The notes under the pieces are model-generated. The model searched no databases. It was not told where the DNA came from and saw only the letters and a list, made by a program, of their open reading frames with translations. A DNA stretch of 64,000 bases from Mycobacteriales bacterium (GTDB lineage Bacteria; Actinomycetota; Actinomycetes; JAFAQI01): positions 26,416 through 90,415 of the forward strand of contig DASZOU010000023.1 of the NCBI GenBank assembly GCA_035550655.1, in the 5' to 3' direction. Positions 12,423-21,456 of the stretch are shown piece after piece; positions within the stretch are counted from its first letter, which is position 1, and each line of letters begins with the position of its first letter. The position numbers and the translations under genes were made by a program.

Positions 12423-12494
12423 GCCCCCGTAGCTCAGGGGATAGAGCACCGCCCTCCGGAGGCGGTGGCGCAGGTTCGAATCCTGCCGGGGGCA
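12423..12494 (+). tRNA. tRNA-Arg(CCG)
   Basis: Acceptor GCCCCCG/CGGGGGC, D-arm TAGCTCAGGGGATAGAGC, anticodon arm CCGCC-CT-CCG-GA-GGCGG, T-loop GGTTCGAATCC; CCA not encoded. Confidence 0.96.
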
Positions 12495-13321
12495 CAAGCA
12501 AAGGAAGACCGCCGGCGTCGCAGCGCAGCCACTGCAGCAGCGGCGAGATAGAGGAGCGTCGCGACGGCCATGATCGCGAACGACACCGGGATCCGTGATG
12601 CCTCGTAGGCGATGACGATGCCGGCCCACAGGGTGGCGACCGCGAGCCCCGCCGAGAGCAGCAAACCGTGCCAGGGCCGGTTCGTCAGCAGTTGGGCCGC
12701 CGCTGGTGGAGCAGCCAGCAGCCCGAACAGGAGCAGCGCGCCGATGGCTTGGCTGGCCTCGGCTGCGGTAACGCCGACCAACGCAAGGAAGAGGGTTTCC
12801 AGCAGGCGAACCGGTACCCGTCGCGCGGCAGCCACGCCCGCGTCGAATGTCGTGAACAGCAGCGGGCGGGCGATGACGGCGACAACCGCGATCCCACCGA
12901 GGGCGACCCACGTGGCCGTGCGCGCATCTGCCGCGCTGATGCCGAAGATGGAGCCGAACAGCGCGTTGACGCTGGCGGCACCGTTCCCCGTCGCGCGATG
13001 CGTGGTGTAGAGGGCGAGGAAGAACACCCCGAGGCCGAGGATCCAGGCGAAGGTGGTGCCGATGACGACGTCGTCAGCTCCGCTGCGCCCGCCGATGACG
13101 CCAAGCAGCACGCCGACGGTGATGCACGCCGTGAACAGGCCGAGCCGCTCGTCGACGCCGGCGGCAAGCGCGGCAAGCGCGCCGGTGTAGGCGACATGAG
13201 ACAGCGCGTCACCGGCGAACACCTGGCCCCGCAGAACCACGAAGAAGCCGACAAGTCCGGAGAGCACAGCGATCGCGGTGCCGGCAAGCAGTGCGTGCTG
13301 AATGTAGGGAGCGGACAGCAT
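12434..13321 (-). CDS. Zn/Mn ABC transporter permease (ZnuB-like) B of system 1
   Basis: ABC-3 permease pattern (GDALSHVA, LFGSIFGI, IGALLLFGLLAAPPAAA); stop codon lies inside the tRNA antisense. Confidence 0.85.
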   Translation of the reverse strand: MLSAPYIQHALLAGTAIAVLSGLVGFFVVLRGQVFAGDALSHVAYTGALAALAAGVDERLGLFTACITVGVLLGVIGGRSGADDVVIGTTFAWILGLGVFFLALYTTHRATGNGAASVNALFGSIFGISAADARTATWVALGGIAVVAVIARPLLFTTFDAGVAAARRVPVRLLETLFLALVGVTAAEASQAIGALLLFGLLAAPPAAAQLLTNRPWHGLLLSAGLAVATLWAGIVIAYEASRIPVSFAIMAVATLLYLAAAAVAALRRRRSSFACAPGRIRTCATASGGRCSIP

Positions 13322-13371
13322 GGTCCCGAGATGTCCTACCGAGGTTGCCGTAGCCGCTGAATCGGTGCGGA

Positions 13372-14286
13372 TCATGCGGGGACTGCTCGGGTGGCTGGCG
13401 TACGCCGCGGCCGGCGCGCCCAGCCGTCGGCCACGGCGCGGTAGGCGCTGGCGAGCAGGAAGACCGCGAACGCCAACGTGGTCACCCAGAACCCGATCGG
13501 GTACGGGGAGAAGAACGCGATCCCTTCTCCGGCCCAGGTGACGGCGATCGCGATCAGGATCGAGAGAACGACACCAACCGGGGGTCGGGCGGTCAATCGG
13601 GTGGCGGCGGCTGCGGGGGCCACCAGCAGGGCGAAGACGAGCAGGCTGCCGGTGACTTGGCTGGTGCCGGCGGTCGCGACCCCGAGCAGGACGAGGAACA
13701 CGGCCCCGATCAAGCGAACCGGGACACCGCGGGAGCGGGCGGTGCTCGGGTCGATCGTCGCGAACAGCAACGGCCGGCTGATGGCCGCGAGGATCAGCAG
13801 GCACACCACGCCGGCGGCCAGCAACTCGGTGACTTGATGGTCGGTCACGCCGATGATGGAGCCGAACAGCAGGCTGTTCAGCCCGGTCAAGAAGCCCTTG
13901 TAGAGGCTGACGAACAGAAATCCGCAGGCGAGGGCGAATCCCTGCACCGTGCCGATGACGGCGGATTCCTCGCCGTAGCCCCCGAGACCTGACCGGGCCC
14001 GTCCCGAGCCTGGCAGGGCGGCGATGATCAAGGCGCCGACGATGCAGAACCCGTAGAAGCCGAGTGGGGTGGCTACCCCGAGATAGGTGGCGCCCGCCGC
14101 GCCGGGGAACCCGGCGACGGCCAGCGTGTGGCCGACGAAGCTTTGGCGACGCAGGACCATGAAGTAGCCGATGGCTCCGGCCACGACGGCGACGATGGTG
14201 CCGGCCCGCAGGGCGTTGACCATGAAATGCAACGCCAGGACCGCTCGGGCGTCAGCAAGGATGTTCCAGCTCAGCCCAGGGGTCAT
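13372..14286 (-). CDS. Zn/Mn ABC transporter permease A of system 1
   Basis: FVGHTLA, LLFGSIIGV, GSLLVFALLVAPAAAA. Confidence 0.87.
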   Translation of the reverse strand: MTPGLSWNILADARAVLALHFMVNALRAGTIVAVVAGAIGYFMVLRRQSFVGHTLAVAGFPGAAGATYLGVATPLGFYGFCIVGALIIAALPGSGRARSGLGGYGEESAVIGTVQGFALACGFLFVSLYKGFLTGLNSLLFGSIIGVTDHQVTELLAAGVVCLLILAAISRPLLFATIDPSTARSRGVPVRLIGAVFLVLLGVATAGTSQVTGSLLVFALLVAPAAAATRLTARPPVGVVLSILIAIAVTWAGEGIAFFSPYPIGFWVTTLAFAVFLLASAYRAVADGWARRPRRTPATRAVPA

Positions 14287-15191
14287 CGGTGGTCGTGTTC
14301 GGCGGGGGTATCAGGTTGCCCGACCACCACGAGACGTCCGAGGCGGTCGGTGAGGACGTCGATCGGCGTGCCGTACAGCATGGTGAGGGTGTCGGGTGTG
14401 ATCACCTCGGCGGGCGATCCCATCACCGCCCCACCGTGGGCGAGGTAGATGACCTGGTCGAGGTAGGAGATGAGCGGGTTCACGTCATGGGCGACGAGCA
14501 GAACGGCGACGTTCTCGCTGCGGGACACGTCGCGAATCAGCCGGCTGATCGCTGCCTGGTTGGTGACGTCGAGGCTGTCGAGCGGTTCGTCCAGGATCAG
14601 CAGGTCGGGGCGTCGTACCAGGGCTTGGGCGATGAGCAGGCGCTGCTGCTCGCCGCCTGAGCATTGACCGATCGGGCGGTGTGCGTATTCGGTGGCACCG
14701 ACCAGGTCGAGAACCTTCTCGACGCGCTCGCGGCCGGTGCGTCCCTTCTTGCCGGCGAGCCGGCTCGGCACGGGGATCCCCCACCGGTCGCCGTCCCAGC
14801 CGAGGCGGACGATGTCGACGCCGCGGATCCGGACGGACGTGTCGAACGCTCGGCGCTGCGGCAGGTAACCGATGCGCTTGTTGTGCTGTCCCGGGCGTCC
14901 GCCGAGTACCGCAGCTTCGCCCGCGACGAGTGGAACCAGGCCGAGGATCGCTTTCAGCAGCGTCGACTTGCCGACGCCGTTCGGGCCGAGAACCGCGACG
15001 AACTCACCGGCTGACACGCGGAGACTGACCTCGGACCACACTCGTCGGTGACCGACCACCGCCGCGGCCCGGCTCAGCTCGACGACCGGCCCGACATCAC
15101 CCTTGGGTCTGCCGGCTTCCGGGCGTGCGTCAACCCGCTGACCGTCGGGTTCAGCCGCCACCTCGGCGCGGTGCTGCAACCGCCTGGTCAC
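14283..15191 (-). CDS. Zn/Mn ABC transporter ATPase of system 1
   Basis: GPNGVGKST, CSGGEQQR, LILDEP. Confidence 0.92.
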   Translation of the reverse strand: MTRRLQHRAEVAAEPDGQRVDARPEAGRPKGDVGPVVELSRAAAVVGHRRVWSEVSLRVSAGEFVAVLGPNGVGKSTLLKAILGLVPLVAGEAAVLGGRPGQHNKRIGYLPQRRAFDTSVRIRGVDIVRLGWDGDRWGIPVPSRLAGKKGRTGRERVEKVLDLVGATEYAHRPIGQCSGGEQQRLLIAQALVRRPDLLILDEPLDSLDVTNQAAISRLIRDVSRSENVAVLLVAHDVNPLISYLDQVIYLAHGGAVMGSPAEVITPDTLTMLYGTPIDVLTDRLGRLVVVGQPDTPAEHDHR

Positions 15192-16111
15192 CTACCGGTC
15201 GCTTTGTGCAGTGCGTCGGCGAGATCCTGGAGCTGTGCCGACTGCCACTGCTGGAAGGAGTCGTTGGCCGGGGTGAGCGTTTCGGTGACCTTCGCGATCG
15301 GGATCCCAGCGTTCATCGCCTCTTTAACCTGAGCCGTCACGTCTGGGGTCGCGTTCTGGGTGTTGAAGACGTAGACCTTGTCCTCGTGGCTGGTGATCTG
15401 CTGGTTGATCGTGCTCAGGTCGGCCGGGGAGGGATCAGTACCGTTATTGACCGCGTCCATGAATGACGGCGGCGTGATCAGGTCCAGTTTCAGTGCTTGA
15501 GCGAGCAGGACGAAAATCGATTCGCTTGCCTCGACCTTCACTCCGGCGTATCTGGTCTGGATCTCGTTGATCAGCGAGTGATAGGTCGCGAGTCCCTTGG
15601 TCTCGAATGTGTGCAACTGGTTCGCGTAGTAGGACGCATCAGCTGGGTCGAGTTTGGTGAGATCGGTGGCGATGGCCTGAGCGACTTGGTTCACGTCGGT
15701 CGGTGAGTACCAGCGATGCGGGTTGGCATCGCCCGGCAGGCCGAGCAGGGTCTGGACATCGAGCACCACCCGTTTCGAGTCGGGGCTCGCCGCCAGCGAC
15801 TTCGCCGCCCACGGGTCGTAGCCGATGCCGTTCTCGACGAACAGCTGTGAGCCCGCGATCACGGTGCCGTCACGAGGAGTCGACTCGTAGTCGTGCGGGT
15901 CGGTGTCGGGGTTGGTGATGATCGATGTCTCGTGGACGTGCGACCCGCCGATCTGGGACAGCACGCTGCCCCACACGTTGATGCTCGCCGCAACCTGGAG
16001 AACCTTGCCGGCGCCTGGCGGTGCGCTCGAACCAGATGAGGTGCTGCACCCGGACACCAGGGTCGCCCCAACTGCGACAGCAACTGCGGGCGCGATCCAG
16101 ATTCGGCGCAT
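15188..16111 (-). CDS. Zn/Mn ABC substrate-binding lipoprotein (cluster A-I) of system 1
   Basis: Lipobox VSGC, DPHDYE, NPHRWYSP; AGGAGG RBS. Confidence 0.9.
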   Translation of the reverse strand: MRRIWIAPAVAVAVGATLVSGCSTSSGSSAPPGAGKVLQVAASINVWGSVLSQIGGSHVHETSIITNPDTDPHDYESTPRDGTVIAGSQLFVENGIGYDPWAAKSLAASPDSKRVVLDVQTLLGLPGDANPHRWYSPTDVNQVAQAIATDLTKLDPADASYYANQLHTFETKGLATYHSLINEIQTRYAGVKVEASESIFVLLAQALKLDLITPPSFMDAVNNGTDPSPADLSTINQQITSHEDKVYVFNTQNATPDVTAQVKEAMNAGIPIAKVTETLTPANDSFQQWQSAQLQDLADALHKATGR

Positions 16112-16177: not shown

Positions 16178-16329
16178 CCAATATCATGGGTGGCGAGACG
16201 CGGCAAGGCAGCCGCGGCGCGGCAGCGTGATTGAAGTGGAACCCACTGTCGTTTATCTTGTTGGCAGTCGATACCGTTAGCCGCCACTTCAGACGACCCG
16301 TTCCGTCGTCGCCACCACGAGGAGTTTTC

Positions 16330-17280
16330 GTGTTCTCCACGCCTTCTGCCGCCCGGCAAGTGCTGTCAGCCTCGATTGCCGCGGGGGCCCTTTTGGCGCT
16401 CGCAGCGTGCGGCTCGTCGTCGAGTGGCGGCGGATCTGCTCCACAGTCTTCAGACACGGGCAGCAGCACCCCGACCAAGACGATCCAGGTGGTGGCCGGT
16501 GAGAACTTCTGGGGGAACATCGCGGAGCAGATCGGCGGGTCGCACGTGCACGTGACGTCGATCATCACCGACCCGAACACGGACCCGCACGAGTACGAGA
16601 CCGACCCCAACGATGCGGCCGCCGTCGCGGCGGCTCAGTTCGTGATCGAGAACGGCGTGGGCTACGACGACTTCCTCCCCAAGGAGATCTCGACCGCCGG
16701 AGGGTCGAAGCAGGTGCTGAACGTGCAGCAACTGTGCGGGGTGACGGGCAGCAACCCGAACCCGCACCTGTGGTACTCGCCGACCTACGTGCTGAAGACC
16801 GCAGCGGCCATCGAGTCGCGATTCGCGAGCGACGATCCCGCCGACGCCGGCACCTTCCAGGCCAACCTCGCGACGTTCACGCAGGCATACCAGCCCTACA
16901 TCCAGACCATCCACGCGATCAAGGCGAAGTACGGCGGCGACGCGATCTCCTACACCGAGCGGGTACCCGGCTACCTGGTCCTCGCCGCCGGCCTTCACCT
17001 CGGCACGCCCGCGGCGTTCTCGCAGGCCGTCGAGGACGGCACCGACCCAACCCCTGCGGACACGGCCACCTTCAACTCCGACATCCAGCAGCACAAGGTG
17101 AAGGTGCTGCTGTACAACTCCCAGGTCGTGGACGCCCAGACCACGAAGATCAAGCAGACCGCGACATCGGCCGGGGTGCCGATCGTCGGGGTGAGCGAGA
17201 CGATCCCGGCAAAGTTCTCTACCTTCCAGGCATGGCAGATCGCACAGGCGAGGTCGCTGCTGGCAGCGCTCGGGAAGTAG
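16330..17280 (+). CDS. Zn/Mn ABC substrate-binding lipoprotein of system 2 (ZnuA-like)
   Basis: AGGAG RBS then GTG 16330; lipobox LAAC; DPHEYE, NPHLWYSP. Confidence 0.9.
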   Translation: MFSTPSAARQVLSASIAAGALLALAACGSSSSGGGSAPQSSDTGSSTPTKTIQVVAGENFWGNIAEQIGGSHVHVTSIITDPNTDPHEYETDPNDAAAVAAAQFVIENGVGYDDFLPKEISTAGGSKQVLNVQQLCGVTGSNPNPHLWYSPTYVLKTAAAIESRFASDDPADAGTFQANLATFTQAYQPYIQTIHAIKAKYGGDAISYTERVPGYLVLAAGLHLGTPAAFSQAVEDGTDPTPADTATFNSDIQQHKVKVLLYNSQVVDAQTTKIKQTATSAGVPIVGVSETIPAKFSTFQAWQIAQARSLLAALGK

Positions 17281-17283
17281 CCG

Positions 17284-18129
17284 GTGTCGGCCGCTGACGT
17301 CGCGCCCGTCGTACAACTCCACGACGCGGCACTCCGGTTCGGAGAGCGCACCGTCTGGAGCGGCCTCAACCTCGACGTTGCGCCGGGCGAGTTCGTCGCT
17401 GTCCTCGGCCCGAACGGATCGGGAAAGACCAGCCTGCTGAAGGTCCTGCTCGGCTTGCAGCGGCTGACCTCCGGAGCGGTCGAGGTGGGCGGATCGTCAC
17501 CCAGCCGCGGCAGTAGGTCGGTCGGATACGTTCCGCAGCAGAAGGGGTTCGACCGCGACGTGCCGCTACGGGGCCGCGACCTGGTGGCGCTCGGACTCGA
17601 CGGACACCGATGGGGCGTCCCGTTGCCGTCTCGGGCGCGGCGCGGTCGGGTCGACGCCGCACTGGCCGACGTCGGAGCGCAGCGTTACGCCAAGGCCGCC
17701 GTCGGAAGACTGTCCGGCGGTGAACAGCAGCGGCTGCGGATGGCGCAGGCGCTGCTCGGTGATCCGGCCCTGCTGCTGTGCGACGAGCCGTTGCTCTCCC
17801 TCGACCTGCACCACCAGCGGGTCATCACCGAGCTCGTCGACCGGCGACGACGCGAGCACGGCACCGCCGTGCTGTTCGTCACCCACGAGGTCAACCCGGT
17901 CCTCCCCTTGGTGGACCGCGTCCTGTACCTCGCGGAAGGGCGATGGGCGAGCGGCGCGCCGGACGAGGTACTCACCAGCGAACGGTTGTCCGCCCTGTAT
18001 GGAACTCCGGTCGAGGTCGTTCGAATCGGTGGCCGGGTCATCGTCGCCGGCACCCCAGACGCCGTCCATGCCGAGCCCGGTGGTTCGCACCACCATCCCG
18101 ACGATTCCGCTGGCGCGATCCCGCGATGA
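17284..18129 (+). CDS. Zn/Mn ABC ATPase of system 2 (ZnuC-like)
   Basis: GPNGSGKT, LSGGEQQR, LCDEP; C-terminal HHH. Confidence 0.92.
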   Translation: MSAADVAPVVQLHDAALRFGERTVWSGLNLDVAPGEFVAVLGPNGSGKTSLLKVLLGLQRLTSGAVEVGGSSPSRGSRSVGYVPQQKGFDRDVPLRGRDLVALGLDGHRWGVPLPSRARRGRVDAALADVGAQRYAKAAVGRLSGGEQQRLRMAQALLGDPALLLCDEPLLSLDLHHQRVITELVDRRRREHGTAVLFVTHEVNPVLPLVDRVLYLAEGRWASGAPDEVLTSERLSALYGTPVEVVRIGGRVIVAGTPDAVHAEPGGSHHHPDDSAGAIPR

Positions 18130-19022
18130 CCACCCACTGGGGATACCTGCACCTCGCCTTCGCGCAGCATGCGCTCATCGCCGCATCGATCGTGGCGGTG
18201 ATCAGCGGTGTCGTCGGCCCGTTCGTCATCACCCGCGGCATGTCCTTCGCCGTCCACGGTGCCGCGGAGCTCGCACTGACCGGTGCCGCAGCGGGACTGC
18301 TGATCGCCAACGATGCCGTTTCGGGCGCCCTGGTCGGTTCCGTCGTCGTGGCGGGGGCATTCGGTGTTCTCGCCGTCCGGGAGCGGGAGCGTGACTCCGC
18401 GATCGGCGTCGTGCTCGGTCTCGGTCTCGGTCTCGGCTTCTACCTGTTGCACTTCTACCACGGGTTCGAAACCGAAGCGCTGGACATCCTCGTCGGGCAG
18501 ATCACCTCTGTCGGCACCACGCAGATCGAGATCCTCGTCGCGGTCGCACTCGCCGTGCTCGTCGCGATGATTGCGTTGTACCGGCCGCTTACCTTCGCCA
18601 GCGTCGACCTCGATCTTGCGGAAGCCCGCGGCGTCCGCACCCGGCTCGTCGGGCTGTTGTTCCTGCTGCTGCTGTGCGTGACCGTTACCGAGGCCGCGCA
18701 GGTGGTCGGGACCGTCCTCGTGCTCAGCCTCGTCATCACCCCGGCCGCGGCGGCCCAGCGCCTGTCCGCCCACCCCGGGGTCGTCATTGGGCTCTCCACC
18801 GTCTTTGCGCTCATCGCCGCCGACGGCGGCCTGCTCGTCAACATCGTCTACGTGCCCGACGTCCGGGCCAGTTCCTTCATCACCTTCATCGCGTTCGCGA
18901 TCTACGCTCTCGCCCGGATCGCCGCAGCAACTCGTCATTCGCTGGGCGGTCGCGGCGAGCTCCCCGCCGACCCGGAGCACTCGGATGCCACGGCAGACGT
19001 GACCGACGGAGCGGTTGGCTAA
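18126..19022 (+). CDS. Zn/Mn ABC permease of system 2 (ZnuB-like)
   Basis: FAVHGAAEL, VGTVLVLSLVITPAAAA; ATGA overlap. Confidence 0.88.
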   Translation: MTTHWGYLHLAFAQHALIAASIVAVISGVVGPFVITRGMSFAVHGAAELALTGAAAGLLIANDAVSGALVGSVVVAGAFGVLAVRERERDSAIGVVLGLGLGLGFYLLHFYHGFETEALDILVGQITSVGTTQIEILVAVALAVLVAMIALYRPLTFASVDLDLAEARGVRTRLVGLLFLLLLCVTVTEAAQVVGTVLVLSLVITPAAAAQRLSAHPGVVIGLSTVFALIAADGGLLVNIVYVPDVRASSFITFIAFAIYALARIAAATRHSLGGRGELPADPEHSDATADVTDGAVG

Positions 19023-19043
19023 TACATGAATAGGTTCTAATAT
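19015..19043 (+). promoter_or_regulatory. Housekeeping-sigma leaderless promoter for smtB with a probable ArsR/SmtB operator in the spacer
   Basis: TTGGCT-N17-TAATAT-N6-GTG; the spacer read on the minus strand, TATTCATGTATT, resembles an SmtB half-site. Confidence 0.65.
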
Positions 19044-19049
19044 CAATGT

Positions 19050-19361
19050 GTGAGCACACCTGCGGTGGCAGCACCCGGTGGGCAGCGGCTCGTCGCCGCA
19101 GCGGAGTTGCTGCGCGCGCTGGCCTCGCCGGTCCGGTTGTCCCTGATCGCTGAGCTCGGCGACGGGCCGCGGTGCGTGCACGAGCTCGTGACTGCCTGCG
19201 GGGCGAGCCAATCGTTGGTCAGCCAGCACCTGCGGGTGCTGCGCGGATCCCGGTTGGTTCGCGCCGAACGCCGCGGTCGTGAAGTCGTGTACACGCTCAC
19301 GGACACCCACGTCAGTCACATCGTGGCTGACGCCATCTCCCATGCCGAGGAGGCAGAATGA
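19050..19361 (+). CDS. smtB: ArsR/SmtB-family zinc-sensing repressor (alpha5 site)
   Basis: SQSLVSQHLRVL HTH; alpha5 motif D-x-H-x10-H-x2-E (DTHVSHIVADAISHAEE); lies before a Fur-family gene as in mycobacterial smtB-zur. Confidence 0.85.
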   Translation: MSTPAVAAPGGQRLVAAAELLRALASPVRLSLIAELGDGPRCVHELVTACGASQSLVSQHLRVLRGSRLVRAERRGREVVYTLTDTHVSHIVADAISHAEEAE

Positions 19362-19516
19362 GCACGCCAACCACCGAGCACGACGTCCACACCGAGCACG
19401 AGCACGAGCACGGCGAGGACTGCGGCCACGAGACCGTGCAGCACGGCGACCACATCGACTACATCCACGACGGGCACAAGCACGCCGCCCACGACGACCA
19501 CTGGGACGAGCACTGA
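19358..19516 (+). CDS. 52-aa His/Asp/Glu-rich putative metal-binding peptide (absent from ORF track)
   Basis: MSTPTTEHDVHTEHEHEHGEDCGHETVQHGDHIDYIHDGHKHAAHDDHWDEH; 14 His; GAGGAGG RBS; ATGA overlap with smtB; GC3-rich codons. Confidence 0.88.
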   Translation: MSTPTTEHDVHTEHEHEHGEDCGHETVQHGDHIDYIHDGHKHAAHDDHWDEH

Positions 19517-20004
19517 GCACTTCCCGCAGCGCAGCACCGCCGCCTCCGACGCAACAGGGGGCGGCGGTCGAGCGTCCGGTCGCACGCCTACGCGCCACTC
19601 GCCAAGCGGCGGCGATCGACGAGGTTCTGGCGGCGAACCATGGCTTCCGCAGCGCCCACGAGGTGTACGACGAACTGCGTCGGCGAGGTGAGCGTGTCGG
19701 TATGACGACCGTCTACCGGCAACTCAAGCTGCTCGCCGACTCCGGCGTTCTCGACGTGGTCAACCGCCCCGACGGCGAGGCCGGGTACCGGCTGTGCGGG
19801 CCGACCGCCGCCGAGGCGAACGGGCACCATCACCATCTCGTCTGCAAAGTCTGCGGCTACACGGTCGAAGTCGAGGGCCCCGAGGTCGAGCGGTGGGCAG
19901 ACCGAGTCGCGTCAGACGCCGGCTTCACCAACGTCACCCACACCGTCGAGATCTTTGGCGACTGCGGACGGCACTCCCCGCGAAGCCGGCGCAAGAGCTC
20001 CTAG
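19513..20004 (+). CDS. zur: Fur-family zinc uptake regulator (Zur/FurB); probable CTG start
   Basis: RATRQ, FRSAHEV, TTVYRQL, HHHLVCKVCG, FGDC; no ATG/GTG/TTG in frame between the peptide and the DNA-binding helix, but a CTGA overlap at 19513. Confidence 0.82.
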   Translation: MSTSRSAAPPPPTQQGAAVERPVARLRATRQAAAIDEVLAANHGFRSAHEVYDELRRRGERVGMTTVYRQLKLLADSGVLDVVNRPDGEAGYRLCGPTAAEANGHHHHLVCKVCGYTVEVEGPEVERWADRVASDAGFTNVTHTVEIFGDCGRHSPRSRRKSS

Positions 20005-20279
20005 CTGCCCTTTGCGGCGGACTTCAGCGTCTGGCCCGGCGTCAGCTTCGCGCTGAACCCGGCGGGAACCGTCATCGGCTCACCGGTGTGCGGGTTGCGC
20101 CCCTGACGCTCAGCGCGGCTGACCCGCTCCGCGGTGAGGAATCCCGGCACGGTGACCTTCTCGCCTCGAGCGAGCGCTTCCGCCAGCACATCTCGCGTCC
20201 CATCGAGAGCCATCCCCACATCGGCGCCCAGCAGCCCGGTACGCCGCGCGACTTCCTCAATCAGCTCCGAGCGATTCAT
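20001..20279 (-). CDS. hup: HU-family DNA-binding protein
   Basis: MNRSELIEEVA...VTVPGF...RAERQGRNPHTGE; AGGAG RBS. Confidence 0.9.
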   Translation of the reverse strand: MNRSELIEEVARRTGLLGADVGMALDGTRDVLAEALARGEKVTVPGFLTAERVSRAERQGRNPHTGEPMTVPAGFSAKLTPGQTLKSAAKGS

Positions 20280-20339
20280 GAACACTCCTGGCGAAGGTCG
20301 GCGGGTCGGCGTTGCTCCGACCTCATGTGGGATCTATGT

Positions 20340-20360
20340 TATCGGATGTGGACCCCAATA
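20340..20360. promoter_or_regulatory. Inverted repeat / candidate Zur-type operator between hup and the CobW-like gene
   Basis: TTATCGG-N15-CCGATAA at 20339-20367; the minus-strand 21-mer TATTG-N11-CGATA resembles the mycobacterial Zur box arms. Confidence 0.3.
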
Positions 20361-21456
20361 CCGATAAGGCCCCCGAGTCCGTGCCTTGCGTCGTCGTTTC
20401 CGCCCCCCGAGCCGACCTGCGCGACGAGTGCTGCTGGGCGATCCTCCGAGATGTTCCATCCGCGCGTACGGTGCGCTACGACGTCGTGACGCTGCCAGGC
20501 GGACGGGGCTTCCGCCGCACCATCAGTGAGAGCGGCTGCCTTGTCGAGCAGCACGAAATCGACATCACGACCCACTGCATGACCTGCGCAATCCGCATCG
20601 ACCGCTCGTCACCCTCGAGCGCCTGCGGCGCAGCGGCAGCTCTCCGGTCATCGTGGGCCTACCGGTCGGGACGAACGTCTCGTCGGTCGTCGCCGCGCTC
20701 GATGGCGGCGTCCGGATCGAACCCGAGCTGTCCCCAGTCGCCGTGCGCAGCGTGGTACTCGCCGTTGACGCCATGACGGTCGTCGAGGACCTCACCGGGG
20801 AGGACCAGCTCGTCGACCGGGGGCAGCACTGGGAGGACACGGACCGCCGCTCCGTGGGCGAAGTACTGGCGGCCGGCATCGACTTCGCCGACCAGGTCAT
20901 CATCGACGGCGACGGCGATCCGGCCGCGCGGGCGTTGCTCTCCCACCTCGCGGGAGCCCGCGTGTCGGACCTGCAAAGCCTGGACGGGCGGCGCCTGGTC
21001 GGGACGAACCGCGACCCAGAGGCCGCCTACAGCCGCATCGACCCGCTGCAGGTCAGGCCCGACGGGGACACGACGCTCAGCGGCGCTTGGACTCTCGACC
21101 TCGCGTCGTGGCGGCCGATGCACCCCGAACGGCTCCACCGTCGACTGGCCGACCTCGCCACCGGGCGGCTGCGCGGTCGCGGTCGTTTCTGGCTGCCGAC
21201 CCGGCCCGACACCGTTTGCGTCTGGGACAACGCCGGGGCGCAGCTCAGCGTCGGCGACGGCGGCGACTGGAGTGGCGAGGCACCCAGCACCCGCCTCGTC
21301 ATCACCGGGATCGACACCGCAGACCGAGATCGAATCCTCGATGCCTTCGAAGCCACCCTGATGACCGACAGCGAGCTCGTGCGAGGGCTGGCCAGCTGGG
21401 TCGGGCGCGACGACGGCCTGGACACCTGGCTGGGCTCGAGAACGACCATCACATGA
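20348..21456 (+). pseudogene. CobW/P47K (Mrf-like) zinc-associated protein, frameshifted at ~20603
   Basis: Frame A gives HCMTCAIRID; frame B resumes LVTLERL...VIVGLPVG, then QIDFADQV-like, RPMHPERL and RGRGRFWLPTRP CobW_C motifs; one base missing at GAC-CG-CTC. Confidence 0.72.

Follow-up and report, generated by a model that had tools for sequence, protein, structure and literature searches.

A histidine-rich peptide encoded between smtB and zur in a Mycobacteriales bacterium belongs to an undescribed, zinc-linked family of probable zinc-binding modules

Introduction

What might a very small, histidine-rich protein do when it is encoded between a sensor of zinc excess and a sensor of zinc starvation? 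The question is raised by a stretch of 64,000 nucleotides from a Mycobacteriales bacterium (assembly GCA_035550655.1, contig DASZOU010000023.1, positions 26,416 to 90,415), here called the window. In it, an open reading frame (ORF) of 52 codons lies between smtB, which encodes a metal sensor of the ArsR/SmtB family, and the reading frame of zur. The peptide is a member of an undescribed, zinc-linked protein family and is probably a cytoplasmic zinc-binding module. The window thus presents a small, sensor-linked putative metal binder within an smtB-zur operon, whose function is suggested by its context.

The Actinomycetota include mycobacteria, corynebacteria, and streptomycetes. We know of no cytosolic zinc metallothionein from this group. 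The module family is a concrete candidate for what is missing between the set-points of Zur and SmtB, whether a buffer, a hand-off, or a sensing element. It is large and unnamed, places about 12 fixed His in each 46 residues, and is found on the permease ZnuB, fused to ArsR, or between both zinc sensors. The new features described below are a single-repeat copy wedged between the two sensors, the permease tail as the most frequent form in the 80 loci sampled, with its Zur boxes and an embedded zur start, a series of decaying copies, and a zur gene that lacks its start codon.

A translated gene at the smtB-zur junction

Translation of positions 19358 to 19516 yields MSTPTTEHDVHTEHEHEHGEDCGHETVQHGDHIDYIHDGHKHAAHDDHWDEH, a product of 52 codons with 14 His (27%), one Cys, and 15 Asp/Glu. 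A preliminary description of this DNA had reported such an ORF, rich in His, Asp, and Glu and with a single Cys, together with a 4-nt overlap with the smtB stop and a strong ribosome-binding site, and all three statements are borne out. The ATG of the peptide gene overlaps the TGA of smtB (19050-19361) as ATGA at 19358-19361, and the Shine-Dalgarno sequence GAGGAGG precedes it by 4 nt. The G+C content at third codon positions (GC3) across the peptide is 0.96 in its own frame, compared with 0.75 and 0.31 in the other two, as expected of a frame that is translated in a high-G+C actinomycete. The peptide and the module contain no signal peptide.

The 52-residue gene was also called (JGI) in L085, which comes from a different metagenome; here and below, L-numbers denote loci among species genomes and P-numbers denote matches of a profile search. 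The L085 peptide differs from that of the window by five conservative amino-acid changes, accompanied by two silent ones. All residues that are invariant in the family are present in the window peptide, namely H16, H18, C22, H24, H29, D31, H32, D34, Y35, H37, H42, H45, and D50. The 52-residue ORF is a real gene and a member of a conserved family. An attenuator or leader peptide built on His codons was ruled out, as the His spacing is kept at the protein level across phyla.

The underlying sequence was compared with independent data. Contigs of the soil metagenome runs X1 and X2 show zero differences to the window across 18500-20300, and the contig of a third sample, X3, shows none across 19343-19645. 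An assembly frameshift at the junction of peptide and zur was excluded, as the independent contigs are identical there. A soil metatranscriptome contig of 333 nt spans the smtB-peptide junction (19092-19424, 98.8% identity) and gives weak evidence of co-transcription, DNA carry-over being possible. Pieces of smtB were present in two further metatranscriptomes, one of which also contains a transcript of another family member.

A repeat family with a fixed ligand pattern

A word-indexed search of 5.8 billion proteins with the peptide returned five matches with E-values from 1e-11 to 4e-5, one of them from a Streptococcus. The profile built from these matches retrieved 1062 clusters at E≤1e-3 from 1.84 billion representatives, and the homologues keep the His pattern. 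A gap-free alignment of 111 repeat units gives the motif HxHxHGxxCGHxx[VI]xHGDH[VI]DYxHDGHxHxxHxxH[WYF]D[ED][HC], in which 13 columns are invariant and seven nearly so. The unit is 46 residues long and has its roughly 12 His, its one Cys, and several Asp/Glu at fixed positions. Judging from this alignment, it is a fixed ligand pattern and not low-complexity sequence. With each prokaryotic species represented by one genome, a scan confirmed more than 554 loci; the best 80 of these, to which all locus counts below refer, are almost all from Actinomycetota.

Searches of Pfam (even at E≤10), NCBIfam, and the sequences of the PDB with the peptide and its homologues gave no match, and neither did tblastn against plasmids. 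Neither the motif strings nor a description of the family were found in the searchable literature. In public databases, members are named 'hypothetical protein' or, by evident mis-annotation, 'threonine dehydratase' or 'FlgF'.

In silico modelling with AlphaFold2 gave an unusable result for a single repeat (pLDDT 52). For a 98-residue member with two repeats, modelled with 96 homologues, the pLDDT was 76, and each repeat formed a four-strand beta meander. A Foldseek comparison of this two-repeat model with the PDB revealed nothing similar (all E>5, TM<0.3). According to the model, the module is an all-beta unit.

Three profile matches (P0054, P0088, and P0098) are eukaryote-like C2H2 zinc-finger proteins in which the module (HTHGPNCGHEAIQHEDHLDYIVD...) is present as a single or double copy of good quality. 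These fusions hint at a zinc-responsive domain of transcription factors outside bacteria.

Where the module occurs

The commonest setting among the sampled loci is a fusion. In 45 of the 80, the module forms the last ~70 residues of a Pfam-confirmed ABC-3 (ZnuB) permease, annotated by NCBI as a 334-residue 'metal ABC transporter permease', and zur follows in 44 of these 45. In 40 of the 41 fused operons examined, the most AT-rich upstream site is a clear Zur box or a pair of them (TGAnAATnnTTnTCA). After the last transmembrane (TM) helix, the fusions carry an Arg-rich stretch. The ZnuB of E. coli has nine TM helices with a coupling helix after TM5, which places the C-terminus of ZnuB in the cytoplasm. 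Taken by analogy with this topology, and given the Arg-rich stretch and the missing signal sequence, the module is predicted to be cytoplasmic. The ZnuB tail would then sit at the cytoplasmic mouth of the importer and would be made under zinc shortage.

The second setting involves ArsR-type sensors. Directly upstream of the module, smtB is found in 13 of the 80 loci, with an intact alpha5 motif in 12 of the 13. In L027, ArsR and the module share one reading frame, and further ArsR fusions are found among the profile matches (P0008 and P0060). The order smtB, module, Fur-family gene also occurs in three Acidimicrobiia, which is an independent version of the arrangement in the window. Taken together, the module is fused or adjacent to zinc genes in 62 of the 80 loci; the window belongs to these, with smtB upstream, zur downstream, and znuACB ahead of them.

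In operons of the Nocardioides type (L005, L007, L011, L018, L019, and ~15 more), the zur ATG lies within the last codons, or 14 nt, of the tail ORF. The end of this ORF, TAT GAC GAG CAC TGA, is re-read as ATG ACG AGC ACT. Since the Tyr-Asp codons of the conserved ...YDEH form the zur ATG, every such Zur begins with MTST or MTNT. Members with Trp in place of Tyr, such as those of Kribbella and the window, do not have the embedded zur ATG. In the Kribbella locus L024 (3139-3180), the end of the tail ORF (CACTGGGATGAGCACTGA) is repeated just past the stop, a small duplication scar at the tail-zur junction.

Upstream of the free genes described below (L030, L045, L049, and L067), the Nocardia copies share ATGCGCAnCTGCTAATGT and the Streptomyces copies GGCATTnnGnACTAGCCTG. 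When the regions ahead of the free genes of Streptomyces, Nocardia, and Corynebacterium were searched for common regulator sites, only such genus-specific conserved elements emerged, none of which could be assigned; neither ATGCGCAnCTGCTAATGT nor GGCATTnnGnACTAGCCTG resembles a Zur box.

Regulators flanking the peptide gene

The smtB product comprises 103 residues from the start GTG 19050. It matches HTH_5 (PF01022, E 4e-12) and scores 85 bits against the NCBIfam model NF033788, 'metalloregulator ArsR/SmtB', which has a cut-off of 55. Among solved structures, its best relative is 8qkf (an ArsR), with NmtR second, followed by SmtB and CzrA. The C-terminal helix, D-T-H-VSHIVADAIS-H-AE-E (DTHVSHIVADAISHAEE), contains the complete alpha5 pattern DxHx10Hx2E of SmtB and CzrA. 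As judged from this motif, the regulator is an ArsR protein of the SmtB/CzrA type with an intact zinc-site motif.

On the other side of the peptide gene, the product of the zur frame matches FUR (PF01475, E 7e-27). Its solved relatives are the Zur of S. coelicolor (3mwm, 6e-40) and FurB/Zur of M. tuberculosis (2o03, 4e-38), and Fur proteins follow at ~1e-12. The frame ending at 20004 is, going by these relatives, an orthologue of Zur and not of Fur or PerR. The motifs HHHH and CKVC are present, and the second pair reads C-G-R-H (CxxH), as it does in close relatives. The Zur proteins of this clade (window 19940-19975; P0154-P0183) end in ...FGDCGRH, with CxxH in the second structural-site pair as opposed to the CxxC of the Zur proteins of S. 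coelicolor and M. tuberculosis. The alpha5 site and the Zur-type relatives agree with the earlier view that the two regulators are sensors of zinc excess and zinc starvation.

A candidate promoter was read directly ahead of smtB. A -35-like TTGGCT (19015-19020), which overlaps the znuB stop, is separated by a spacer of 17 nt from a -10-like TAATAT (19038-19043), and ATACATGAATAGGTTCTAATAT is found at 19022-19043, in the spacer of this candidate promoter. The -10-like element ends only 7 nt ahead of the GTG, which implies a leaderless smtB. Within 583 kb (loci plus window), the 8-mer ATACATGA has five occurrences, three of them just upstream of a peptide-linked smtB (L034, L052, and position 19022 of the window). 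The ATACATGA element at 19022 is a candidate SmtB operator inside this putative leaderless promoter. Upstream of the smtB of the window, no convincing match to a Zur box was found.

The start of zur is less clear. Between 19342 and 19702, its frame contains no ATG, GTG, or TTG. A start at ATG 19342 was ruled out, as the GC3 of that frame across the peptide is 0.31. A 4-nt overlap of the peptide gene with the zur start had been described previously; it exists, as CTGA, only if CTG 19513 is the start codon, and no canonical start codon is available in the frame. L085 (Zur 95% identical) shares the smtB end, the 52-residue gene, and CACTGA with the window, and its GTG start was called where the window has GCG. 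In L089 (Zur 72% identical), a TTG occupies the overlapping position (TTGA), and the N-terminal extension of its Zur, LSPTRRTAP..., resembles LSTSRSAAPP... of the window. Either the near-cognate overlapping codon is used by terminating ribosomes, or the strain has lost the normal zur start.

Origin of the cassette

The window peptide is closest to that of L085 (91%), and next to an smtB-linked single-repeat gene of Leucobacter (78%). In a tree of the 46 columns, which is poorly resolved, it falls outside the two clades of permease tails. An origin by splitting off a ZnuB tail is not supported, given this position in a poorly resolved tree. In L087, the znuB stop and the zur start overlap as ATGA, with neither smtB nor the peptide between them. 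We infer that a cassette of smtB and peptide with its own promoter was inserted between znuB and zur, and that L087 represents the uninterrupted state.

Proposed role of the module and alternative explanations

With slightly better than even confidence, the module is proposed to be a cytoplasmic, labile, putative multi-site acceptor of Zn(II) that acts as a buffer or hand-off point. Each module would bind several Zn(II) ions in the cytoplasm. On a rise in zinc, SmtB would leave the DNA of the putative operator in the cassette promoter. The cell would then produce SmtB together with the peptide and, provided that translation continues, Zur as well through read-through and coupling. The peptide would soak up zinc or pass it on while Zur shuts uptake. 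More generally, such an acceptor would capture zinc that enters or increases, prevent its binding at wrong sites, and deliver it where it is bound more tightly, for example to Zur or zinc enzymes. A labile acceptor fits both settings of the module, the ZnuB tail made in zinc shortage and the copy behind smtB made at high zinc. What is proposed here, as opposed to shown, is that the peptide binds zinc, that SmtB controls the cassette, that the cassette has this promoter, that translation is coupled, and that zur starts at CTG.

Several observations weigh against this proposal. In 18 of the 80 loci, the module occurs as free two-repeat genes (Streptomyces, Nocardia, and Corynebacterium) with no zinc-gene neighbour. 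The fused form is expressed from Zur-repressed operons, i.e., in zinc shortage, which favours hand-off or sensing over a sink for excess zinc. In the window, the canonical Zur box TGAnAATnnTTnTCA has a single match at ≤2 mismatches, no more than expected by chance, and a scan for consensus promoters and terminators gave no match. Co-production of Zur is uncertain because zur has no canonical start codon. Finally, the peptide is dispensable in the clade of the window, because copies are degenerate in L089 (a 42-residue ORF that has lost most His and still ends in ...DEH) and P0162 (a remnant, LDYLHNDHHH, borne by the Zur N-terminus), and deleted in L086 (where smtB is reduced to its final 15 codons and the peptide to a collapsed remnant) and L087. 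The cassette is unstable in this clade.

These results also bear on the functional ideas of the preliminary description. The proposed 'rheostat' wiring of smtB, peptide, and zur is not strongly conserved in the lineage, as the degenerate and deleted copies of close relatives show. The family is linked to zinc genes in 62 of the 80 loci; a pure sink for excess zinc is too narrow a reading, since the commonest setting among these 80 is an importer tail controlled by Zur boxes, which implies production in zinc shortage. The term metallothionein-like does not apply to a peptide with one Cys and no Pfam match at E≤10.

The alternative that fares best is that the module chiefly serves ZnuABC as a regulatory domain that senses zinc. 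The zinc-loaded tail would shut the transporter, and the free peptide of the window would act in trans on the ZnuBC next to it. This is a possibility to which we give some, though clearly limited, credence. The 45 cytoplasmic ZnuB tails, the position of the window peptide gene directly after znuACB, and the fusions to transcription factors (ArsR and C2H2 zinc-finger proteins), which suit a sensor domain, all speak for it, and there is a good precedent in E. coli, where a zinc sensor built into ZnuC locks the transporter (bioRxiv 10.1101/2025.07.03.663024). However, many free copies lie far from any importer (Streptomyces, Nocardia, and Corynebacterium), the window peptide falls outside the permease-tail clades, and more than 12 conserved ligands per 46 residues exceed the need of a switch.

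A wider proposal, of which we are doubtful in its full form, joins sensing to transfer and takes the HGDHxDY unit as a hitherto unrecognised domain for transferring and sensing zinc, in direct cooperation with the zinc machinery. The ZnuB tail would accept zinc from the importer and act back on it, the ArsR fusion would supply or tune the sensor site, and the free peptide would exchange zinc with SmtB and Zur and thereby set their switching points. The module would then be the His-built actinobacterial counterpart of metallothionein.

It is also conceivable that the window ORF is mainly a translated spacer, whose product is little used and whose ribosomes, ending at UGA 19514-19516, re-initiate on CTG or nearby for zur. 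The zur gene without a canonical start codon would suit such a role, as would the degenerate ORF of L089, which retains its ...DEH end and its overlap with a TTG start of zur (TTGA), and the zur ATG inside the last module codons of the Nocardioides-type loci. Nevertheless, none of the invariant residues of this family, which is conserved across phyla, has been lost from the window copy, L085 keeps the peptide with five conservative and two silent changes, and in L087 zur comes immediately after znuB without any spacer ORF. A spacer is an improbable explanation. Storage or buffering of another metal such as nickel or cobalt, as in Hpn, with an ArsR gene of the NmtR or KmtR type as a Ni/Co sensor, is very unlikely: nickel is the classic ligand of small His-rich proteins, NmtR ranks second among the solved relatives of the ArsR protein, and alpha5 sites can bind Co and Ni too, but the module is surrounded by ZnuA, ZnuB, and Zur genes with Zur boxes and not by nik, cbi, or NikR, and the ArsR protein of the window does not have the extra C-terminal His ligands of NmtR.

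Relation to described systems

The preferred role, that of a labile zinc acceptor, can be compared with several described systems. Operons of smtB and zur are known in mycobacteria (Rv2358-Rv2359 and MSMEG_4486-4487), confirming the earlier statement that the two genes adjoin there, and they provide a precedent for the regulator pair of the window (PMC7174638). As in the window, the sensors of excess and starvation are encoded consecutively in one transcription unit of an actinobacterium. The mycobacterial genes overlap or are 4 bp apart with nothing between them, whereas the window has a third cistron in this place. Unlike the mycobacterial operon, the unit in the window follows znuACB, and its zur has no canonical start codon.

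The zinc sensor SmtB of Synechococcus controls the metallothionein gene smtA. There, as in the window, the gene of an SmtB sensor with an alpha5 site adjoins a small gene for a ligand-packed protein, and derepression is expected at zinc excess. The ligands of SmtA include nine Cys, whereas the window peptide offers His, Asp, and Glu with one Cys, and the module, having no Pfam or Foldseek match, shows no relation to SmtA in sequence or predicted fold. Furthermore, smtB and smtA are divergent, whereas smtB and the peptide gene are co-directional and overlapping, and the module, unlike SmtA, also occurs as a ZnuB tail and as an ArsR fusion. Membership in the metallothioneins SmtA/BmtA was rejected, with one Cys against ~9 Cys plus His and no match to Pfam Metallothio_Pro.

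Cytoplasmic, ligand-rich appendages of zinc transporters are a further parallel. The zinc-sensing domain at the C-terminus of E. coli ZnuC has the motif CxxxHxCC and locks the transporter, and like this domain and the His-rich loops of ZIP transporters, the module is attached to a zinc transporter on the cytoplasmic side (bioRxiv 10.1101/2025.07.03.663024). It differs in being carried by the permease ZnuB and not by the ATPase, in its unrelated motif without CxxxHxCC, and in forming an autonomous unit that can be repeated and that occurs as a free protein too. The motif CxxxHxCC was found neither in the peptide nor in the C-terminus of the window ZnuC.

Like the peptide, Hpn and Hpn-2 of Helicobacter pylori are small cytosolic proteins in which His makes up about a quarter or more of the residues. 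Hpn is a low-complexity poly-His/Gln protein tied to nickel and NikR, in contrast to the gap-free fixed pattern, predicted beta fold, and zinc-gene neighbours of the module; with 13 invariant columns and such neighbours, an assignment to the Hpn type was dismissed. The Pht proteins of Streptococcus, which have HxxHxH zinc sites, contain the triad HGDHYHY, which recalls HGDHxDY of the module, and both are linked to zinc uptake systems. Pht proteins are, however, large surface proteins, and no match of the module to Pht was found in Pfam (E≤10), in PDB sequences, or with Foldseek, so that it is not counted among them.

Zinc importers and neighbouring genes

The features of the locus are collected in Table 1.

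Table 1. Coordinates of the peptide gene, its putative expression signals, and the adjoining zinc genes in the window.
Feature	Position	Strand	Basis or remark
znuA-type solute-binding protein gene	16231-17280	+	Pfam ZnuA PF01297, E 2e-42; listed start is TTG, but the true one may be further downstream
znuC-type ABC ATPase gene	17284-18129	+	Pfam ABC_tran; His-rich C-terminus GGSHHHPDD
znuB-type ABC-3 permease gene	18126-19022	+	Pfam ABC-3 PF00950, E 4e-37
Candidate promoter/operator of the smtB-peptide cassette	19015-19049	+	Read from the sequence; tentative
ArsR/SmtB-family metal sensor gene (smtB)	19050-19361	+	Pfam HTH_5, NCBIfam NF033788, alpha5 site
Shine-Dalgarno GAGGAGG of the peptide gene	19347-19353	+	Sequence; 4 nt ahead of the ATG
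52-residue His-module gene	19358-19516	+	One HxHxHGxxCGH...HGDHxDYxHDGHxHxxHxxHWDEH unit
zur reading frame from the CTG overlapping the peptide stop	19513-20004	+	Pfam FUR; FUR domain from near 19588
GCG codon where L085 has a called GTG start	19564-19566	+	Comparison with L085; no variant in the DNA runs

Two importers adjoin the cassette on its upstream side, as stated previously, with ZnuABC-type sets at 16231-19022 (+) and 12434-16111 (-). In the nearer set, the znuB start overlaps the znuC stop as ATGA, and ZnuB is without a His-module tail. The second set is divergent, with the order ZnuA-ZnuC-ZnuB-ZnuB on the minus strand. Its two successive ABC-3 permease genes (13372-14286 and 12434-13360) follow those of ZnuA and the ATPase, a layout like that of TroABCD, and this importer may serve a different metal.

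ZnuC proteins of actinobacteria end in short His-rich tails, for example GGSHHHPDD in the window (18060-18129) and HHDHAPH and HAHVHPH elsewhere (L005, L012, and L014). In this they are unlike E. coli ZnuC, for which a zinc-sensing domain based on Cys has been described. Upstream of znuA, an element TTGAAGTGRAACCCA...TTRTTGG is shared by the window (16200-16270), L086 (540-600), and L087 (1330-1370). It may be the operator of the unusual Zur of this clade, or that of another regulator.

Downstream of zur, after a gene for HU, lies a gene with a CobW_C domain (COG0523-like, 20346-21456) that is split over two frames. Compared with the intact gene of 369 residues in L086, it carries a 1-nt deletion near 20603 (ATCGACC-GCTCGTC); the L085 gene matches the intact version and ends at the contig end. 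The lesion is real in the population, because contigs of four samples agree with the window. The split CobW_C gene and the missing zur start together suggest that the zinc regulon of this strain is eroding.

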